Origin: an uncultured virus (IMG/VR IMGVR_UViG_3300030380_002827) | Lineage: Duplodnaviria; Heunggongvirae; Uroviricota; Caudoviricetes | Direction: 5' to 3' (one strand) | Length of the DNA: 64,000 bases | IMG/VR virus record: IMGVR_UViG_3300030380_002827 | Part shown: positions 12,284 to 17,082 of the stretch, piece by piece | Numbering within the stretch: position 1 is the first letter of the stretch | Layout: each line of letters begins with the position of its first letter | Notes under the pieces: generated by a model | What the model was told of the DNA's origin: nothing | What the model saw: only the letters and a program-made list of their open reading frames with translations | Database searches by the model: none | Made by a program: the position numbers and the translations under genes

Positions 12284-12440
12284 CAAACTCTCCTTTTCTA
12301 GCTAAGTATACTTTAACATCATTATACTGCTTTTGTATACTTTGTGCAAACCAATTTGCTGGATCTCTTGATTCAAAGACTTTCATCTGTCTATCAGAAA
12401 ATAGTCCATCATCAGACCAGCATACTATGTATTTTGTCAT
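12276..12440 (-). CDS. Hypothetical protein (54 aa)
   Basis: MTKYIVCWSDDGLFSDRQMKVFESRD...; ATGA overlap with the gp43 stop. Confidence 0.6.
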   Translation of the reverse strand: MTKYIVCWSDDGLFSDRQMKVFESRDPANWFAQSIQKQYNDVKVYLARKGEFDD

Positions 12441-14941
12441 GCGAAGAATGATTCAAGTGTGTTCTTGCGTTCGGTCTCCCAACCAATGCAATCAAGGATA
12501 ACCTTTACAGGTTCCATAAACGACTTATTGAACTGTAGTTCGTAGTCAATATGTTTATCTAGGTCAAGTTCCGTAGGGAAATCTTGAATGAAAGATATAA
12601 CATTTTCGTGCATCCAATTAGGTGTCTTTAGGTAGCAGAACTTGATCTTCTCACCGTTTTGAATAGCAGCGTATTTATTGGTCAACTCTTTCTTCTTTGT
12701 GTAGTGATTATATAAGATTGCACCACGAACATGAATAGGACATCCCTTATGATACATGTCTGTGGATGACTTCCATTTCTCCACATTAGATAGACTACGA
12801 GGAAATGCAACTTCCTCTGGCGATAATGATTTGAACTCCTCCCTACACTGTTCAATATAATCAATCACTTCATCTTCTGTACCAGACATCAAAAGTTTAA
12901 AGGCATCTTTCAAGAACTTACGACATGGTGCAGGGGTAGAAGTTTTGATTGCTTCAATACCCATGATCTTAAGTTTTGCCTGTTCATATCTTACACCCTC
13001 ACTATCCCATACGTTAAGAATATATCTTTTCTTTGCAGTCCAAATACCACGATCAGCGATATTCTCCCGCTTCATGATCATCTTTTGATCGTAGGCGTTG
13101 ACGTACTCTGCCAATTCTTCGTAAGAACTTTCAATATAAGGCTCAAGTTGTTTTTCACACACCTTGTTAAGGAACGACACAATGCTTTCAGTAGCCGCCT
13201 CTCTCCCTTCGTATACACGGTCAACCAAAGGACCCATGTGCAAGTAAATAGAATCAGTATCACTAGCAATAACATAATCGATATCTTTTGTTTTTAAAAT
13301 AGTATTCATCTTCTGGTTTATTTTATTCTCAATCCATCGGATTGATACCTGTCCAGATAAGGTGATGGCCTCCGCGTTCGCAAGTTTGTAATAGCGAAAA
13401 TATTGATTACCAATAGCACCATAAGCACTATTGAGGGCAATCTTCTTGGACATTTGGACGTTGTTGCATCTCGCAATCTCCTTTTCAAGTTCTTTAGTAG
13501 GGGTTTTTTCATAGGCTTTTTTTGCTTTGATCATCCTCTTTTTGAAGATGACACGTTCGTTATACATCTTCTCCATCAACTCAGGTAGAAAACCTTTCTT
13601 GTCCTTACTAAACATTGCACCATTGGCACAAACTGCATAGTCCTTGTACATCTCAAAAGTAATCTCTTGATTGAGAAGTTTATCCACCGTGGCACTAGGA
13701 TGTTTCTTTTCCTGTAGTGTTTCTGGGGAGATGTTGTATTGCATAATCAAATGCGGATACAGTGAGTTCAAGTCAAAAGATACCACCCAGTCATACTTAC
13801 CAGGCTTAGGTTCTTTCACATACGCACCAGCATACTTCTCATCTTTCTTGTTACGATCCTTCTGTGGGATCACAATGTTTTTCTTTTTGAGATAGTTGTA
13901 GATAATCGCATCCCATGTGCGAACTTGAAACGCAACATCAGTGAAGTTGATCTTTGCGTCATAGGCACGAGTGCAACATAGATCAATCAACTTGAGTTTA
14001 TCCTCAAGACGGTCAACCAGTTCCACGTCAACGATGTTGTAATCTACAAACTTCTGCCAGTTCTTTGTATAGAACTCACGGAATGTGTCAAACTCACTGT
14101 GATCCAACTTCTGTTGACCGAGTTCCATCATAGCAATATGATCCAATTTGAAACTCTCTTGGTTTGAAGTTGCAGGGGATTTTTTGTATAGATCCAAGTA
14201 ATCAATTACAGATATGCCTGCAAGATCAAATACAATGTTTGCCCGACCCATTATTGTGATTTCATTCTTTCTTACAATGCCCCAAGGAGAGAACTTCTTG
14301 GCCATCTTCTCACCCATAAGACGTTCTACCCTACCTACAAGGTAAGGGATATCATACAGTTCACAGTTCCACCCTGTAATGACCTCAGGCGTGTGTTTCT
14401 GCCACCACTCTAGGAATGTATAGATCAGACCTTCCTCGTTATGGCAGTCAATGTAAGAGTAGTTCTTTCTGTTTGGATTGGTCTTATATGGACGCGATCC
14501 AAAGGTAGTAATTCTTTTAGTATTGTAATCTTGTACCGTGATTAGAAGTAATTCTTCTGCACAATTAAAGACATCGGGGAATCCACTCTCTGCGGCAACC
14601 TCGATGTCAATAGTTACTAGATTAATTTTGCTCAGATCAAACTTGATCTCATTCTCTGGGTAATTATCAGAGATATATTGATGCACATACCTCTCATTAC
14701 CATATACATTGAAGTTTTTTACCTGTGAATACTTATCAATAAACTCCCTACAATCCTTGATTGTGCCAGGTTTGATTGGTTCTACAGGTTGACCGTCAAG
14801 AGTCTTCCACTTACTTCTTTTCTTTGTAGGCACATAAAAGGTAGGATGAAACTCCTCCCTGTCACTAAAATGCTTTCCATTGTCATATCCTCTAACCAGC
14901 ATACTGTTGCCGATCTGGAAAACATTAGTGTAGAATTTCAT
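12437..14941 (-). CDS. gp43: Family B DNA polymerase gp43
   Basis: Exo I DIEV, SFDLNSLYPH, KIALNSAYGAIG, ASDTDS; 834 aa, no intein. Confidence 0.98.
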   Translation of the reverse strand: MKFYTNVFQIGNSMLVRGYDNGKHFSDREEFHPTFYVPTKKRSKWKTLDGQPVEPIKPGTIKDCREFIDKYSQVKNFNVYGNERYVHQYISDNYPENEIKFDLSKINLVTIDIEVAAESGFPDVFNCAEELLLITVQDYNTKRITTFGSRPYKTNPNRKNYSYIDCHNEEGLIYTFLEWWQKHTPEVITGWNCELYDIPYLVGRVERLMGEKMAKKFSPWGIVRKNEITIMGRANIVFDLAGISVIDYLDLYKKSPATSNQESFKLDHIAMMELGQQKLDHSEFDTFREFYTKNWQKFVDYNIVDVELVDRLEDKLKLIDLCCTRAYDAKINFTDVAFQVRTWDAIIYNYLKKKNIVIPQKDRNKKDEKYAGAYVKEPKPGKYDWVVSFDLNSLYPHLIMQYNISPETLQEKKHPSATVDKLLNQEITFEMYKDYAVCANGAMFSKDKKGFLPELMEKMYNERVIFKKRMIKAKKAYEKTPTKELEKEIARCNNVQMSKKIALNSAYGAIGNQYFRYYKLANAEAITLSGQVSIRWIENKINQKMNTILKTKDIDYVIASDTDSIYLHMGPLVDRVYEGREAATESIVSFLNKVCEKQLEPYIESSYEELAEYVNAYDQKMIMKRENIADRGIWTAKKRYILNVWDSEGVRYEQAKLKIMGIEAIKTSTPAPCRKFLKDAFKLLMSGTEDEVIDYIEQCREEFKSLSPEEVAFPRSLSNVEKWKSSTDMYHKGCPIHVRGAILYNHYTKKKELTNKYAAIQNGEKIKFCYLKTPNWMHENVISFIQDFPTELDLDKHIDYELQFNKSFMEPVKVILDCIGWETERKNTLESFFA

Positions 14942-15198
14942 GCGGTTGCCAGTTTCAAGTAAGAATCAATGAGTTCTCGGTGTGGTTCCACCAATGTTAC
15001 TATTTTATCAGAACATATCATAATTTCAACGTCATCTGTCACTTTCTTTAACCAAGGTGACATATCATCACCATCAAGTGCATAAGGTGATACAAGTTTG
15101 CAGTTTGGATCTCCGATATCAACAGCGGCTACTTCCTCTATTCCTGAGATAAGAACGTCGCCATTAACTAGGATTAGTATCTTTACTTCCTGTTCCAT
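14938..15198 (-). CDS. Small Sm-like beta-barrel hypothetical protein
   Basis: VKILILVNGDVLISGIEE...PWL...SDKIVTLVEP; paralogous pattern to 15164..15499; fold inferred. Confidence 0.65.
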   Translation of the reverse strand: MEQEVKILILVNGDVLISGIEEVAAVDIGDPNCKLVSPYALDGDDMSPWLKKVTDDVEIMICSDKIVTLVEPHRELIDSYLKLATA

Positions 15199-15499
15199 AA
15201 ATTTTAGTCTCGTAGGATTGTTTTACCATAGGTTTTGGTTCTACTATCGCAACAACCCAGCTTGGGTCAATAGATATCTTTCTCTCATCAGATAAAGGCA
15301 TCCAAGGATAGTATTGTACACTATATTGTGTCTCTCCTTCCTCTTGTCCTTCTGTAAGTAACACAGGTGCTTCAACCAACTTACAACAGTAGGCATTTTC
15401 AAGAACGATGAAGATGGGTTTTTCATTCTCATCTACAAGTTCTTTTACATCTGCGATGACTTCTTCATTAGATTTTAGTAGAACTAGTTTGACGGTCAT
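15164..15499 (-). CDS. Small Sm-like beta-barrel hypothetical protein
   Basis: VKLVLLKSNEEVIADVKE...PWMPLS...WVVAIVEP; fold inferred. Confidence 0.7.
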   Translation of the reverse strand: MTVKLVLLKSNEEVIADVKELVDENEKPIFIVLENAYCCKLVEAPVLLTEGQEEGETQYSVQYYPWMPLSDERKISIDPSWVVAIVEPKPMVKQSYETKIYGTGSKDTNPS

Positions 15500-15521
15500 T
15501 GCACCAGTATATAGTTTGCAA

Positions 15522-15592
15522 AGCGGATGGATGGTATTGCACCACCGTCTACAAGTTGGAAACCTGTCGTAATACTTTTATACGACATCCGC
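15522..15592 (-). tRNA. tRNA-Gly(TCC), atypical D/T loops, CCA not encoded
   Basis: Cloverleaf: acceptor GCGGATG/CATCCGC plus U73, anticodon stem ACAGG/CTTGT with loop TTTCCAA, T stem GGTGG/CCATC with loop TGCAATA. Confidence 0.85.
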
Positions 15593-15646
15593 ATGAAAGA
15601 CCATCTGCCCCACTCAAGAGTTGCATCTTAGGTCTTGAAAAAAAGG

Positions 15647-15819
15647 GGGGAGGTTGGGTTCCTGTGTACCAACAAGAGGAGGGCATTTCTACAGTTTAGA
15701 ATTACTCCTCTGCATGAGACCTACTTGGTTTGTAGTTCTACTGTTCCCAGCAGCGGGCACCACCCCTGTCTCATCACCTTAACCAGCTATATGCCAGTAA
15801 GTTTATTCAGTCACTCCCA
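15647..15819 (-). ncRNA. manA RNA motif-like structured RNA
   Basis: GGGAGTGACTGAATAAACTTACTGGC...GGTTAAGGTGATGAGAC...GTCTC...TGTTGGTACACAGGAACCCAACCTCCC matches my recollection of the manA consensus; helices GGGAG/CTCCC, GAGAC/GTCTC, CTGCTG-GGAA-CAGTAG and AGAGGAG/CTCCTCT are visible. Confidence 0.8.
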
Positions 15820-15844
15820 GTAAGGTGATCAACCTTACAAAGTT

Positions 15845-15873
15845 ATTATAGTAGGATCTGTGTAAGGTGTCAA
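15845..15873 (-). promoter_or_regulatory. Consensus sigma70 promoter driving the manA RNA/tRNA unit
   Basis: TTGACA (15873-15868), 17-bp spacer, TATAAT (15850-15845). Confidence 0.85.
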
Positions 15874-16562
15874 CCCCCTTTCATAAATCCATTTTTTTGT
15901 AACCATTCCTTAGTCATAGGTGTGGGTGGGTAGACTTCCCACATGTTACCATTAGCACATGCTTTCAATGCTCTCATTGTCATACCCTCAGTTTTCCCTG
16001 CCCAAAATGCTTCTTTCTCCCAAGGAATTGCTTTTGGACTTGCAGCATAAGTTCTAGTGGCAATGTCTTGCCAGATCTGAGGAACCTTATCTTCATCCAT
16101 GATAATAGCAATCATACTATTATCGATAGTCCCTGCCATACAATCTTGTGCAGCGTGCCATCCTTCATGTCGCATCACACTCATGAGTGCAGAAGGGCGA
16201 CCCATATATGCTTTGTTCAAAAAGAAATTATTACCAACTGTGTGATATACTCCACGATTTCCTACAGGAAAATATTTTTCATCTCCCAGATAAACTTTTA
16301 CTCCGACATAATTAAGTGCCACCAACATCTCATGGAATTCCCTAGACACATGATCAAAATTCCTATTATAATTATCAGAAATATCTGCAATGGAGAATAC
16401 TTCTTGGACACCCTCAGTACATTCTCGTAGCATCATACATCCCATTGCATCATTAGTGTACCATCCTTTAGTGATTTTACTTTCGATGGGTTTGGGTAAT
16501 GAATGTGCTAGTACAGGGGCGCTCAATGCAAGACCAATACATGTAGCAATGAACTTTTTCAC
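15870..16562 (-). CDS. Secreted HExxH zinc-metallopeptidase-like protein
   Basis: Signal-peptide-like N-terminus MKKFIATCIGLALSAPVLA; RHEGWHAAQDC and downstream WEKEA. Confidence 0.7.
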   Translation of the reverse strand: MKKFIATCIGLALSAPVLAHSLPKPIESKITKGWYTNDAMGCMMLRECTEGVQEVFSIADISDNYNRNFDHVSREFHEMLVALNYVGVKVYLGDEKYFPVGNRGVYHTVGNNFFLNKAYMGRPSALMSVMRHEGWHAAQDCMAGTIDNSMIAIIMDEDKVPQIWQDIATRTYAASPKAIPWEKEAFWAGKTEGMTMRALKACANGNMWEVYPPTPMTKEWLQKNGFMKGG

Positions 16563-16596
16563 GGATTACTCCCAAAATATACTCATATTATAACAC

Positions 16597-16624
16597 AAAA
16601 AAAGACCCCTGCATGGCAGAGGCC
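16597..16624 (-). terminator. Rho-independent terminator after hsp20
   Basis: GGCCTCTGC-CAT-GCAGGGGTC followed by T7. Confidence 0.75.
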
Positions 16625-16650
16625 TCGATCCATCTCGAACTAAATTATAT

Positions 16651-17082
16651 TTATAGAAAGTCTTTTCGAGCATGATGCTCTGGTACTATTTTGCCCAGTT
16701 TAATTGTGAGAAGTCCATCTGCAAATTTTACATCCTTAACTGTAATGTCTTCTGACAATGCCCAGGCTCTCTGGAAAGATCTCTGAGCCAAACCTCTGTG
16801 TAGGTACTCAGATTCTTCTTCGGTTTTCTCTTTCTTACCCTCTACAATAATCTTTCCGTACTCTGTGTAGACTTTAACCTCATCCTTACTGAATCCAGCA
16901 AGTGCAATCTCTAGTCTAGAATCTACATTGTTAATCTGTACAAGATTATAAGGTGGGTAATTAGTAGTGGAATCAAAATCGAAGAACTGGTTGAAGTAAT
17001 CGTCCATACCAACGCTATTCTTCATGATCTTGTCAACTAGTGTTCCCAGATCCTGAGTATGATATCTTTGAATGTTTGTCAT
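16651..17082 (-). CDS. hsp20: Small heat shock protein Hsp20 (IbpA-like)
   Basis: NYPPYNL, LEIALAGF, YLHRGLAQRSF, DGLLTIKL; AAGGAG RBS. Confidence 0.95.
   Translation of the reverse strand: MTNIQRYHTQDLGTLVDKIMKNSVGMDDYFNQFFDFDSTTNYPPYNLVQINNVDSRLEIALAGFSKDEVKVYTEYGKIIVEGKKEKTEEESEYLHRGLAQRSFQRAWALSEDITVKDVKFADGLLTIKLGKIVPEHHARKDFL

Follow-up and report, generated by a model that had tools for sequence, protein, structure and literature searches.

A manA RNA between a promoter and a tRNA in a T4-like cyanophage: a candidate discrete RNA product

The manA–gp43 locus

The window, a 64,000-nt stretch of DNA from an uncultured Caudoviricetes virus (IMG/VR record IMGVR_UViG_3300030380_002827), carries on its minus strand every sequence feature that an earlier note had listed for this locus (Table 1). 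Direct observation covers the features as well as how far they are conserved and how they are distributed among genomes. The transcript would run in the order manA, a hairpin (H), tRNA-Gly and then DUF6561–DUF6561–gp43, and the locus probably forms a single early transcription unit in a T4-like cyanophage belonging to the S-SSM7 lineage. ORF A and ORF B overlap by 35 nt, and the stop of ORF B overlaps the start of gp43 through ATGA, bearing out the earlier description of two small ORFs coupled to gp43.

Table 1. Features of the manA–gp43 unit in the window
Feature	Position	Strand	Basis
Sigma-70 promoter, TTGACA-17-TATAAT	15845..15873	-	12/12 consensus positions
manA RNA, RF01745, full length	15643..15838	-	covariance model, 170.2 bits
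Hairpin H, 40 nt	15597..15636	-	conserved in relatives; no Rfam match
Atypical tRNA-Gly, anticodon UCC	15522..15592	-	Rfam tRNA, 53.1 bits; ARAGORN -ps95
ORF A, 111 aa, DUF6561, T4-like gene cluster 176	15164..15499	-	Pfam; predicted Sm-like fold of 3BY7 type
ORF B, 86 aa, DUF6561, T4-like gene cluster 177, acidic paralogue	14938..15198	-	Pfam
gp43 family-B DNA polymerase, downstream end of unit	12437..14941	-	

The promoter, rightly called perfect in the earlier note, is the top-scoring of 13 promoter-like sites in 14000–17000 (shuffles, mean 8.3). Its −10 element ends 6 nt ahead of manA position 1, and host sigma-70 RNA polymerase would initiate at the first base of manA. This arrangement recurs: of 112 related phage loci, most appear to have manA starting at promoter +1, and a promoter-like site stands at the equivalent place in 92 of the 112, against 1–2 of 64–71 control windows.

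The manA fold and its loop pairs

The covariance-model check confirmed a manA-type RNA, matching RF01745 over model positions 1–192 of 192 with an E value of 1.4e-45 and a score that far exceeds the gathering threshold (55.2 bits). The earlier estimate of about 170 nt is slightly short, the Rfam match covering 196 nt and the sequence up to the tRNA 246 nt. A minimum-free-energy fold of these 246 nt recovers the end-paired, multi-helix layout that had been described; because its z-score is only −0.98, we base the manA assignment on the covariance model and not on thermodynamics.

Both loop complementarities that had been proposed as possible pseudoknots exist, and the manA of the window retains them: UGGU at 15762–15759 with ACCA at 15729–15726 (L5/L7), and CUGU at 15694–15691 with ACAG at 15665–15662 (L8/L9). 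Among 98 distinct manA sequences, the L5/L7 pair is essentially invariant and therefore yields no covariation signal; the L8/L9 pair has one covarying position, C–G in 87 sequences, A–U in 10 and unpaired in 1 (an alignment quirk). By our own mapping from helix order, the two complementarities would correspond to the L5–L7′ and L8–L9′ kissing loops that the accessible part of a cryo-EM preprint gives as the contacts of manA multimers (bioRxiv 10.64898/2026.07.01.735769). According to that part of the preprint, other manA RNAs of the family self-assemble in vitro, when RNA and Mg are concentrated, into pentamer-based decamers or a 60-mer.

A hairpin restricted to manA

The hairpin that the earlier note had placed behind manA is present, and its pairing is conserved in relatives (97% of cells paired; 4 of 12 pairs changed on both sides). 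H is an irregular hairpin of three segments, AAGACC-UAAGA-UGC-A-ACUC-loop-GAGU-GGG-GCA-GAU-GGUCUU. It lies outside the Rfam manA model (RF01745), and a lenient Rfam scan of 15480–15900 returned only chance matches for it. The 14-mer ACCTAAGATGCAAC retrieved 120 IMG/VR loci. The upstream sequence sufficed for a judgement in 108, and of these 47 were chance matches in coding sequence, lacked the 3′ half of H and were dropped. All 101 of 101 true copies of H stand directly behind the 3′ end of manA. Across these sequences, H thus appears as a conserved appendage of manA only, new here.

Folded alone, H is not unusually stable (z 0.13), and the fold of the 246 nt places it as an independent hairpin. 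A k-turn was considered for its UAAGA/GAU internal loop, in which the non-bulged strand carries an extra U. Sixty distinct forms of H plus tail continue into a T-run (35), a tRNA-Gly (7) or other sequence (18); the H of the window lacks a T-run and runs straight into the tRNA. Behind T-run-bearing copies the next ORF lies on the same strand and mostly starts 61–77 nt past the end of manA, just after the T-run. This leaves no room for another promoter, so manA–H also serves as a leader in those loci, where its termination may be regulated.

Genomic contexts of manA

Among riboswitch candidates located in 5′ UTRs, manA has remained an orphan since 2010 (Weinberg et al. 2010, PMC2864571, as described in the accessible part of that paper). 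It could accordingly be a metabolite-sensing, cis-acting riboswitch or attenuator that controls whether polymerase reads through H or whether the next gene is translated, in which case its target at this locus would be the tRNA–DUF6561–gp43 operon. That rating, a complex and conserved fold, the T-run-bearing copies of H immediately before same-strand ORFs, and the many loci (about half) in which an ORF begins 10–50 nt after manA, as expected for a 5′ UTR element, all speak for such a role. In close relatives, manA stands directly before ORF A with no intervening tRNA in 8 of 22 loci.

Copy number and neighbourhood point the other way. Each of six complete phage genomes (6/6) holds exactly one manA match, and the six neighbourhoods all differ: manA stands at tRNA-Gly/DUF6561, after gp23, before gp32, between regA and purL–hsp20, before talC and before a carbamoyltransferase gene. 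The first downstream ORF in 82 manA loci is equally varied, namely gp32 (16), transaldolase (12), DUF6561 (6), PMM (5), 2OG oxygenase (5), Hsp20 (4), four families found once each, and ORFs of no family (30). As judged from these genomes, a manA that occurs once per genome and in ever different company looks more like an RNA gene than like the leader of a regulon.

At the present locus, too, the context is not that of a leader before a protein-coding gene: a tRNA-Gly begins 50 nt downstream of manA and the first CDS 143 nt after it. The tRNA is atypical, as had been claimed. Rfam RF00005 recognizes it well above the cut-off of 29 bits; default ARAGORN found no tRNA at the locus, and ARAGORN -ps95 calls a tRNA-Gly(tcc). 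Its discriminator is U, CCA is not encoded, and by eye the D-loop (AAAAGUA, no GG) and T-loop (UGCAAUA, no TTC) lack the canonical elbow. A tRNA-Gly is annotated in S-SSM7, conserved copies occur in other loci as well, and a canonical tRNA-Gly(UCC) form is present in other loci.

Adjacency to tRNAs recurs. In 14 of 120 manA loci a tRNA on the same strand, for Asn, Gly or Asp, begins 4–55 nt after manA, and in two loci (L035 and L115) the gap is 4–5 nt, with no room for an expression platform. A 16-mer scan of genome contigs gave 120 loci, a single one of which (L357) passed the manA regex filter, so that bacterial carriers of manA are under-sampled. A bacterial manA match (46.9 bits, under the Rfam gathering score; E 7e-11) sits between tRNA-Lys and tRNA-Arg in an array of 11 same-strand tRNAs plus tmRNA. 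RNAs that lie between tRNAs, or between a promoter and a tRNA, would be freed by RNase P together with other tRNA-trimming enzymes. Since manA adjoins a tRNA and not a CDS, RNase P should release it; the earlier note was right about the tRNA, and its proposal of release by tRNA processing draws on what is known of RNase P.

Copies that abut tRNAs without a platform, or that lie between two tRNAs as in the bacterium, speak against a riboswitch, as do a single copy per genome and unrelated downstream genes. Further, inspection showed no conserved competing helix of manA with H, which folds independently; there is no known ligand; and the ordered self-assembly in vitro described in the accessible part of the preprint would be unusual for an aptamer. 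We therefore consider a riboswitch or attenuator unlikely.

That manA sits strictly at the +1 of strong promoters, and that a terminator-like H stands right before genes whose transcription must pass through it, would also suit a structural 5′ cap that shields early transcripts from host 5′-end-dependent RNases or makes RNA polymerase antiterminate. The put RNA of phage HK022 and the Bacillus EAR element modify RNA polymerase to read through terminators. However, only one transcript per genome would benefit, manA does not form a 5′ end where it lies within a tRNA array, and an Rfam scan gave no similarity to put or EAR, which together make a cap improbable.

The DUF6561 proteins and a possible RNP

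Both small ORFs match Pfam DUF6561 (PF20198, cut-off 27 bits) and are therefore paralogous, in agreement with the earlier note: ORF B with 112.5 bits (E 9.6e-33) and ORF A marginally with 28.2 bits (E 2e-6), relatives of ORF A also carrying PF20198 in a precomputed table. In NCBIfam neither of the two ORFs has a family, nor does the ORF upstream. The proposal of an Sm-like fold held up for the predicted structure of ORF A (pLDDT 81.9), which superposes on PDB 3BY7 with a TM-score of 0.83–0.91 (rmsd 1.5–3.9 Å), and both family profiles match 3BY7 (ORF A family, E 4.6e-7; ORF B family, E 3.3e-4). The AF2 model of ORF B is unusable (pLDDT 45.9), and the predicted ORF A–ORF B complex, with a score of 0.10, is evidence neither way. 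PDB 3BY7 comes from structural genomics, bears the title 'structurally similar to Sm/LSm-like RNA-binding proteins' and was reused as the ring unit of the TIP60 designed cages (7EQ9).

The earlier note had proposed these Sm/Hfq-like proteins as candidate partners of manA. In such an RNP unit, released manA would be bound by the co-transcribed DUF6561 proteins, possibly pentamer to pentamer. The predicted fold of ORF A and the two profile matches are compatible with it; 3BY7 was deposited with five chains, and manA assemblies are pentamer-built in the accessible part of the preprint. In addition, DUF6561 is found in every manA-bearing phage checked (5/5 plus S-SSM7), and manA would be co-transcribed with the pair here and, by its position directly upstream of DUF6561, in 22 of the 25 informative loci from this ORF A clade (ORF A identity at least 60%).

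Chemistry and genome distribution weigh against this unit. The pair is strongly acidic (net charge −8 and −10, pI 4.5 and 4.2), as are all aligned relatives (median pI 4.5 and 4.3; none above net charge −3). Neither ORF matches Pfam LSM or Hfq; against Sm_like PF16243, ORF A reaches 13.3 bits, below the cut-off of 29.4 (E 0.094), and ORF B gives nothing. The pair precedes gp43 in all 5 of the Synechococcus phages examined, and 4 of these gave no manA match. In 5/5 other manA-bearing phages, record coordinates put 5 to about 130 kb between the pair and manA. By Pfam, manA stands before DUF6561 in 6 of 82 loci, plus 2 with partial ORFs by eye. Linkage across genomes, one of the earlier predictions, thus holds among close relatives and fails beyond them: none of 52 loci with an ORF A identity of at most 52% has manA directly upstream. 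The one bacterial manA genome examined, of unknown completeness, gave no DUF6561 match. An RNP unit is accordingly very improbable, and the tempting link to the neighbouring Sm-like proteins is best removed as unsupported; the manA RNA, the adjoining tRNA and the Sm-like fold remain from the earlier interpretation.

Rather, the DUF6561 pair most likely represents acidic, ring-type proteins with an Sm-like fold that belong to a conserved hsp20–DUF6561×2–gp43 replication module, and adjoins manA because manA landed upstream of this module in the present lineage. The pair is near-universal before the cyanophage DNA polymerase gene and is itself uncharacterised.

manA(+H) as a discrete RNA

Several lines of evidence, namely the promoter +1 start, the single copy, the changing contexts, the manA-only hairpin and the recurrent tRNA adjacency, lead us to propose that manA(+H) is most likely a discrete, stable RNA product in its own right, of about 246 nt. 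To this explanation as a whole, including the early transcription unit and the replication module, we assign a probability of a little under 0.6. The predicted ends are now exact: transcription would start at 15838, which sets the 5′ end, and the 3′ end would arise by an RNase P cut at the 5′ end of the tRNA, at 15593. In relatives without the tRNA, H and its T-run would end the RNA as an intrinsic terminator, with partial read-through feeding the next gene.

Accumulation of the RNA would be expected, and metatranscriptomes give a weak hint at its abundance. In three of them, contig depth summed over manA bins is 24–73, 2280–2763 and 6–40, against 4–13, 0–8 and 0–2 in non-manA bins; these are Logan contig sums over many related phages at 90% likeness, in runs chosen using the window, and such cover carries no starts, ends or strands, uncovered parts meaning nothing. 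In run X6 two contig ends near 15813–15819 are adapter-joined and uninterpretable.

Once freed, manA would probably act in trans as a multimer through the L5–L7 and L8–L9 pairs. A free multimeric particle of manA RNA in vivo, without protein, is possible but doubtful. Far more speculative is a scheme in which manA(+H), made in bulk from the consensus early promoter and freed at the tRNA, forms five-fold particles in the infected cell on which the acidic, pentameric, 3BY7-type DUF6561 proteins dock, as a symmetric RNA–protein shell or scaffold tied to the replication module; we consider it highly improbable. The comparative picture points from a riboswitch candidate towards a free, trans-acting RNA gene, and the 2026 preprint, in its accessible part, describes RNA-only manA cages in vitro and is silent on manA biology.

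Comparison with known systems

Hfq, Sm and LSm proteins share the small β-barrel fold with the DUF6561 pair, and Foldseek finds spliceosomal Sm and LSm proteins (E 7e-4 to 7e-3), but true Sm/LSm chains reach TM-scores of only about 0.37–0.54 against the ORF A model. They carry basic RNA-binding faces, whereas the DUF6561 pair is acidic and fixed before the DNA polymerase gene. The closer match, 3BY7, has 23–24% identity and no known function or RNA binding; ORF A differs from it by an extra, poorly modelled acidic loop at about residues 45–57.

The corresponding locus of S-SSM7 and S-SSM6a (NC_015287, SSSM7_179 to gp43) shares 85.6% DNA identity over 80% of the window. S-SSM7 has the same order of a hypothetical gene, manA (123.6 bits), tRNA-Gly, T4-like gene clusters 176 and 177 and gp43, except that in its record manA is unannotated and a 43-aa 'hypothetical protein' is called across the stretch of the hairpin and the tRNA. 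No manA match came from G001, the nearest record, which is 39% complete. S-SSM7 on Synechococcus WH8109 offers a culturable phage–host pair for the question.

The manA of the window agrees with its family in its helices, in the L5/L7 and L8/L9 complementarities and in a T4-like cyanophage host range. In published descriptions the family is a putative cis-regulatory element of 5′ UTRs, whereas here manA precedes a hairpin and a tRNA instead of a CDS; promoter anchoring and a single copy per genome are not found in the accessible parts of the published manA accounts. manA resembles the non-coding RNAs processed from tRNA operons, and RNAs that end at intrinsic terminators: lying between a promoter and a tRNA, it would be freed by RNase P.

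Architecture of the manA locus

Weighed against a ribonucleoprotein (RNP) unit, a riboswitch or attenuator and a 5′ cap for early transcripts, the best explanation of the manA unit is that the manA RNA, with or without H, the 40-nt hairpin directly 3′ of it, is probably a discrete RNA product. All of the features listed in the earlier note (promoter, manA RNA, hairpin, tRNA, two ORFs and gp43) were recovered, all on the minus strand, and the Rfam covariance model for manA matched over its full length (see table). The manA RNA starts 6 bases after the promoter −10 element and is joined to H by a C6U7 linker; 4 bases separate H from the tRNA and 22 bases the tRNA from the ORF A start. ORF A (111 aa) and ORF B (86 aa) overlap by 35 nt, and the ORF B stop overlaps the gp43 start. 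The source of the window is a T4-like cyanophage; Synechococcus phage S-SSM7 has 85.6% identity to the stretch and an identical gene order, and its record annotates the tRNA-Gly and leaves manA without annotation.

Features of the manA unit and its upstream flank in the window
Feature	Position	Strand	Detail
Hairpin resembling an intrinsic terminator	16602-16626	−	11 pairs + T-run
230-aa ORF	15870-16562	−	phrog_591
Sigma-70 promoter TTGACA-17-TATAAT	15873..15845	−	perfect, 12/12
manA RNA (RF01745)	15838..15643	−	170.2 bits (gathering score 55.2), model 1-192 of 192
H, irregular 40-nt hairpin	15636..15597	−	
tRNA, anticodon UCC, 71 nt	15592..15522	−	Rfam 53.1 bits
ORF A (DUF6561)	15164..15499	−	
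ORF B (DUF6561)	14938..15198	−	

The 230-aa ORF lies immediately 5′ of the promoter. Its product starts like a signal peptide and contains an HEGWH motif of the HExxH type; phrog_591, of unknown function, is the sole match of the ORF, with no Pfam or NCBIfam family, and the product may be a secreted phage protein resembling metalloproteases. The stop codon of the ORF overlaps the −35 element, and the terminator-like hairpin lies between the ORF and hsp20. Small ‘hypothetical proteins’ are called over manA, H or the tRNA in NC_015287 (151441-151572; locus L001 3160-3291) and P-HM2 (PHM2_011/012; locus L244 1559-1733); these calls, T4-like gene clusters 1355, 569 and 570, are probably not genes.

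manA at the probable start of transcripts

The window promoter is the sole 12/12 site among 13 promoter-like sites in a scan of 14000-17000. Across 120 IMG/VR loci sharing an 18-nt manA core, a sigma-70-like site stands directly upstream of manA in 92 of the 112 loci whose sequence extends far enough to tell (78 when a strict pattern is applied), compared with 1–2 of 64–71 control windows from the same loci. Because of this site, and because its −10 element ends 18–32 nt from the GGGAG core, just ahead of the first manA hairpin, manA appears to form the 5′ end of a transcript. The promoterless loci include some in which a tRNA precedes manA. Within the 70 nt upstream of manA, the −35 TTGACA often lies in the loop of a G/C-rich hairpin with a T-run (GAGGG-TTGACA-CCCTC-TTTTTTT; L007, L010, L011, L033, L061 and many other loci; weaker in the window, 15873-15885), and the upstream terminator and the manA promoter therefore use the same bases.

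A conserved hairpin follows manA

The hairpin reported in the earlier note proved to be a conserved element. A 14-mer from the window H retrieved 120 IMG/VR loci and, in both locus sets together, all 101 H copies with a 3′ half lie 5–20 nt 3′ of the manA end; the remaining 14-mer matches, without the 3′ half, were discarded as chance matches to coding sequence. Pairing holds in 97% of cells across 44 distinct copies (slid controls, at most 40%), with both-sided changes in 4 of 12 pairs, a count limited by the search word, which fixed part of the 5′ strand. The internal loops (UAAGA/GAU; A/GGG or A/CGG) are almost invariant, and an Rfam scan placed H in no family. Among 60 distinct forms of H plus tail, 35 continue into a T-run, 7 into tRNA-Gly and 18 into something else, for the most part the leader of gp32. 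Behind an H that carries a T-run, the next ORF shares the strand and starts mostly 61–77 nt past the manA end, just 3′ of the T-run, so H could act only as a partial terminator. A reading of manA as a riboswitch or attenuator stays a serious rival, because H with its T-run stands directly ahead of genes.

For manA as a discrete RNA product, the earlier proposal that it is released as free RNA gained support of a comparative kind. Assembled metatranscriptome contigs, from runs chosen by a search with the same stretch and with depths summed to include related phages at 90% likeness, give a weak hint of manA accumulation: the three manA bins reach 24–73 in run X1, 2280–2763 in X3 and 6–40 in X6, compared with 4–13, 0–8 and 0–2, respectively, in other bins; manA was uncovered in run X2. 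In one X1 contig H is missing and the manA end runs directly into the tRNA start; this agrees with natural H-less variants (loci L035 and L115) and was rejected as a processing product.

Copy number and genomic neighbours

Each of six complete phage genomes (6/6) has exactly one manA match, at a different position in each. Across 82 loci, the first downstream ORF encodes gp32 (16), transaldolase (12), DUF6561 (6, plus 2 partial by eye), a phosphomannomutase-like protein (5), 2OG oxygenase (5), Hsp20 (4) or, once each, mannose-6-P isomerase, PurS, DUF7294 and DUF2997; the other 30 are without any family. The manA 3′ tail (…AACCUCCCCCCUUUU; window 15643-15660, minus strand) pairs with GGGAG near the manA 5′ end and by eye is anti-Shine-Dalgarno-like, possibly by coincidence.

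A same-strand tRNA starts 4–55 nt 3′ of manA in 14 of the 120 loci with the 18-nt manA core (Asn-GTT 7, Gly-TCC 6, Asp-GTC 1). The label ‘atypical’ for the window tRNA is fair: default ARAGORN misses it, a run with the threshold lowered to 95% calls tRNA-Gly(tcc), and by eye its D-loop is without GG and its T-loop without TTC. The tRNA-Gly(UCC) 3′ of manA occurs in two forms, a canonical one (GG D-loop, TTCGATT T-loop; L210, L392 and other loci) and the window form, in which both elbow loops are altered; acceptor stem and anticodon loop are common to both. In some close relatives of the window phage, manA upstream of ORF A has a tRNA on either side or two tRNAs behind it (L383, 289-356, 358-556 and 555-625; L392).

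A bacterial search with a 16-nt motif from a published bacterial seed sequence yielded one real manA copy among the 120 matches taken (46.9 bits, E 7e-11, below the gathering score), the rest being chance. This copy (locus L373, G002:C4:2499-5676) is placed between tRNA-Lys and tRNA-Arg within an array of tmRNA and 11 tRNAs on one strand, ordered tmRNA, Tyr, Pro, Gly, Lys, manA, Arg, Trp, three Leu and two Ser.

Proposed partnership with the DUF6561 proteins

The earlier note regarded free manA RNA and two Sm-like proteins as a candidate RNP unit. ORF A and ORF B match DUF6561 and PHROGs of unknown function. Because their family profiles match PDB 3BY7 (E 4.6e-7 for ORF A, 3.3e-4 for ORF B) and the ORF A model (pLDDT 81.9) superposes on all five 3BY7 chains (TM 0.83–0.91), the Sm-like fold is confirmed to the level of 3BY7, a protein from structural genomics with no known function; a passage in PMC2530865 noted a 3BY7 homologue in 2008 on T4-like marine phage contigs. 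By contrast, true Sm/LSm chains reach TM values of merely about 0.37–0.54 against the ORF A model. The ORF B model was poor.

The RNP idea itself is not supported. In favour of a link, a set of 80 loci retrieved through the ORF A family has manA directly upstream of ORF A in 22 of the 25 informative ones with ≥60% identity, with a tRNA in between in 14 of the 22 and absent in 8, and in 0 of 52 at ≤52% identity; the arrangement is stable within one lineage, as an inherited local insertion would give, and is no independent co-occurrence. Against a partnership, strong acidity is common to ORF A, ORF B and every relative in the alignment. The order hsp20, DUF6561, DUF6561, gp43 is kept in S-PM2, S-CAM1, ACG-2014f, Bellamy and S-SKS1, four of which have no manA match and the fifth manA 7.6 kb away, and record coordinates separate the pair from manA by 5 to about 130 kb in P-RSM4, P-HM2, P-SSM2, P-TIM68 and P-SSM7. 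The genome with the bacterial manA copy, of unknown completeness, is without a DUF6561 match. The RNP unit is improbable rather than refuted: 3BY7 and the manA pentamer share a five-fold arrangement, which is a curiosity.

Loop pairs and known manA assemblies

The window manA does contain both complementarities that had been noticed as possible pseudoknots, UGGU/ACCA and CUGU/ACAG. The first pair does not vary among 98 distinct manA sequences; in the second, one position covaries (C-G in 87, A-U in 10, with one alignment quirk). Added by the present analysis are H, statistics for the promoter, the count of one copy per genome, the copy in a bacterial tRNA array and a test of the link to DUF6561. 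A preprint of July 2026 (bioRxiv 10.64898/2026.07.01.735769), from which the words ‘tRNA’ and ‘in vivo’ are absent, calls manA a putative cis-regulatory element and describes manA RNAs forming pentamer-based decamers or a 60-subunit cage in vitro through intermolecular L5–L7′ and L8–L9′ kissing loops. By our own mapping from Rfam helix order, with L6 as the GNRA loop, the two pairs in the window would be these same L5–L7′ and L8–L9′ contacts.
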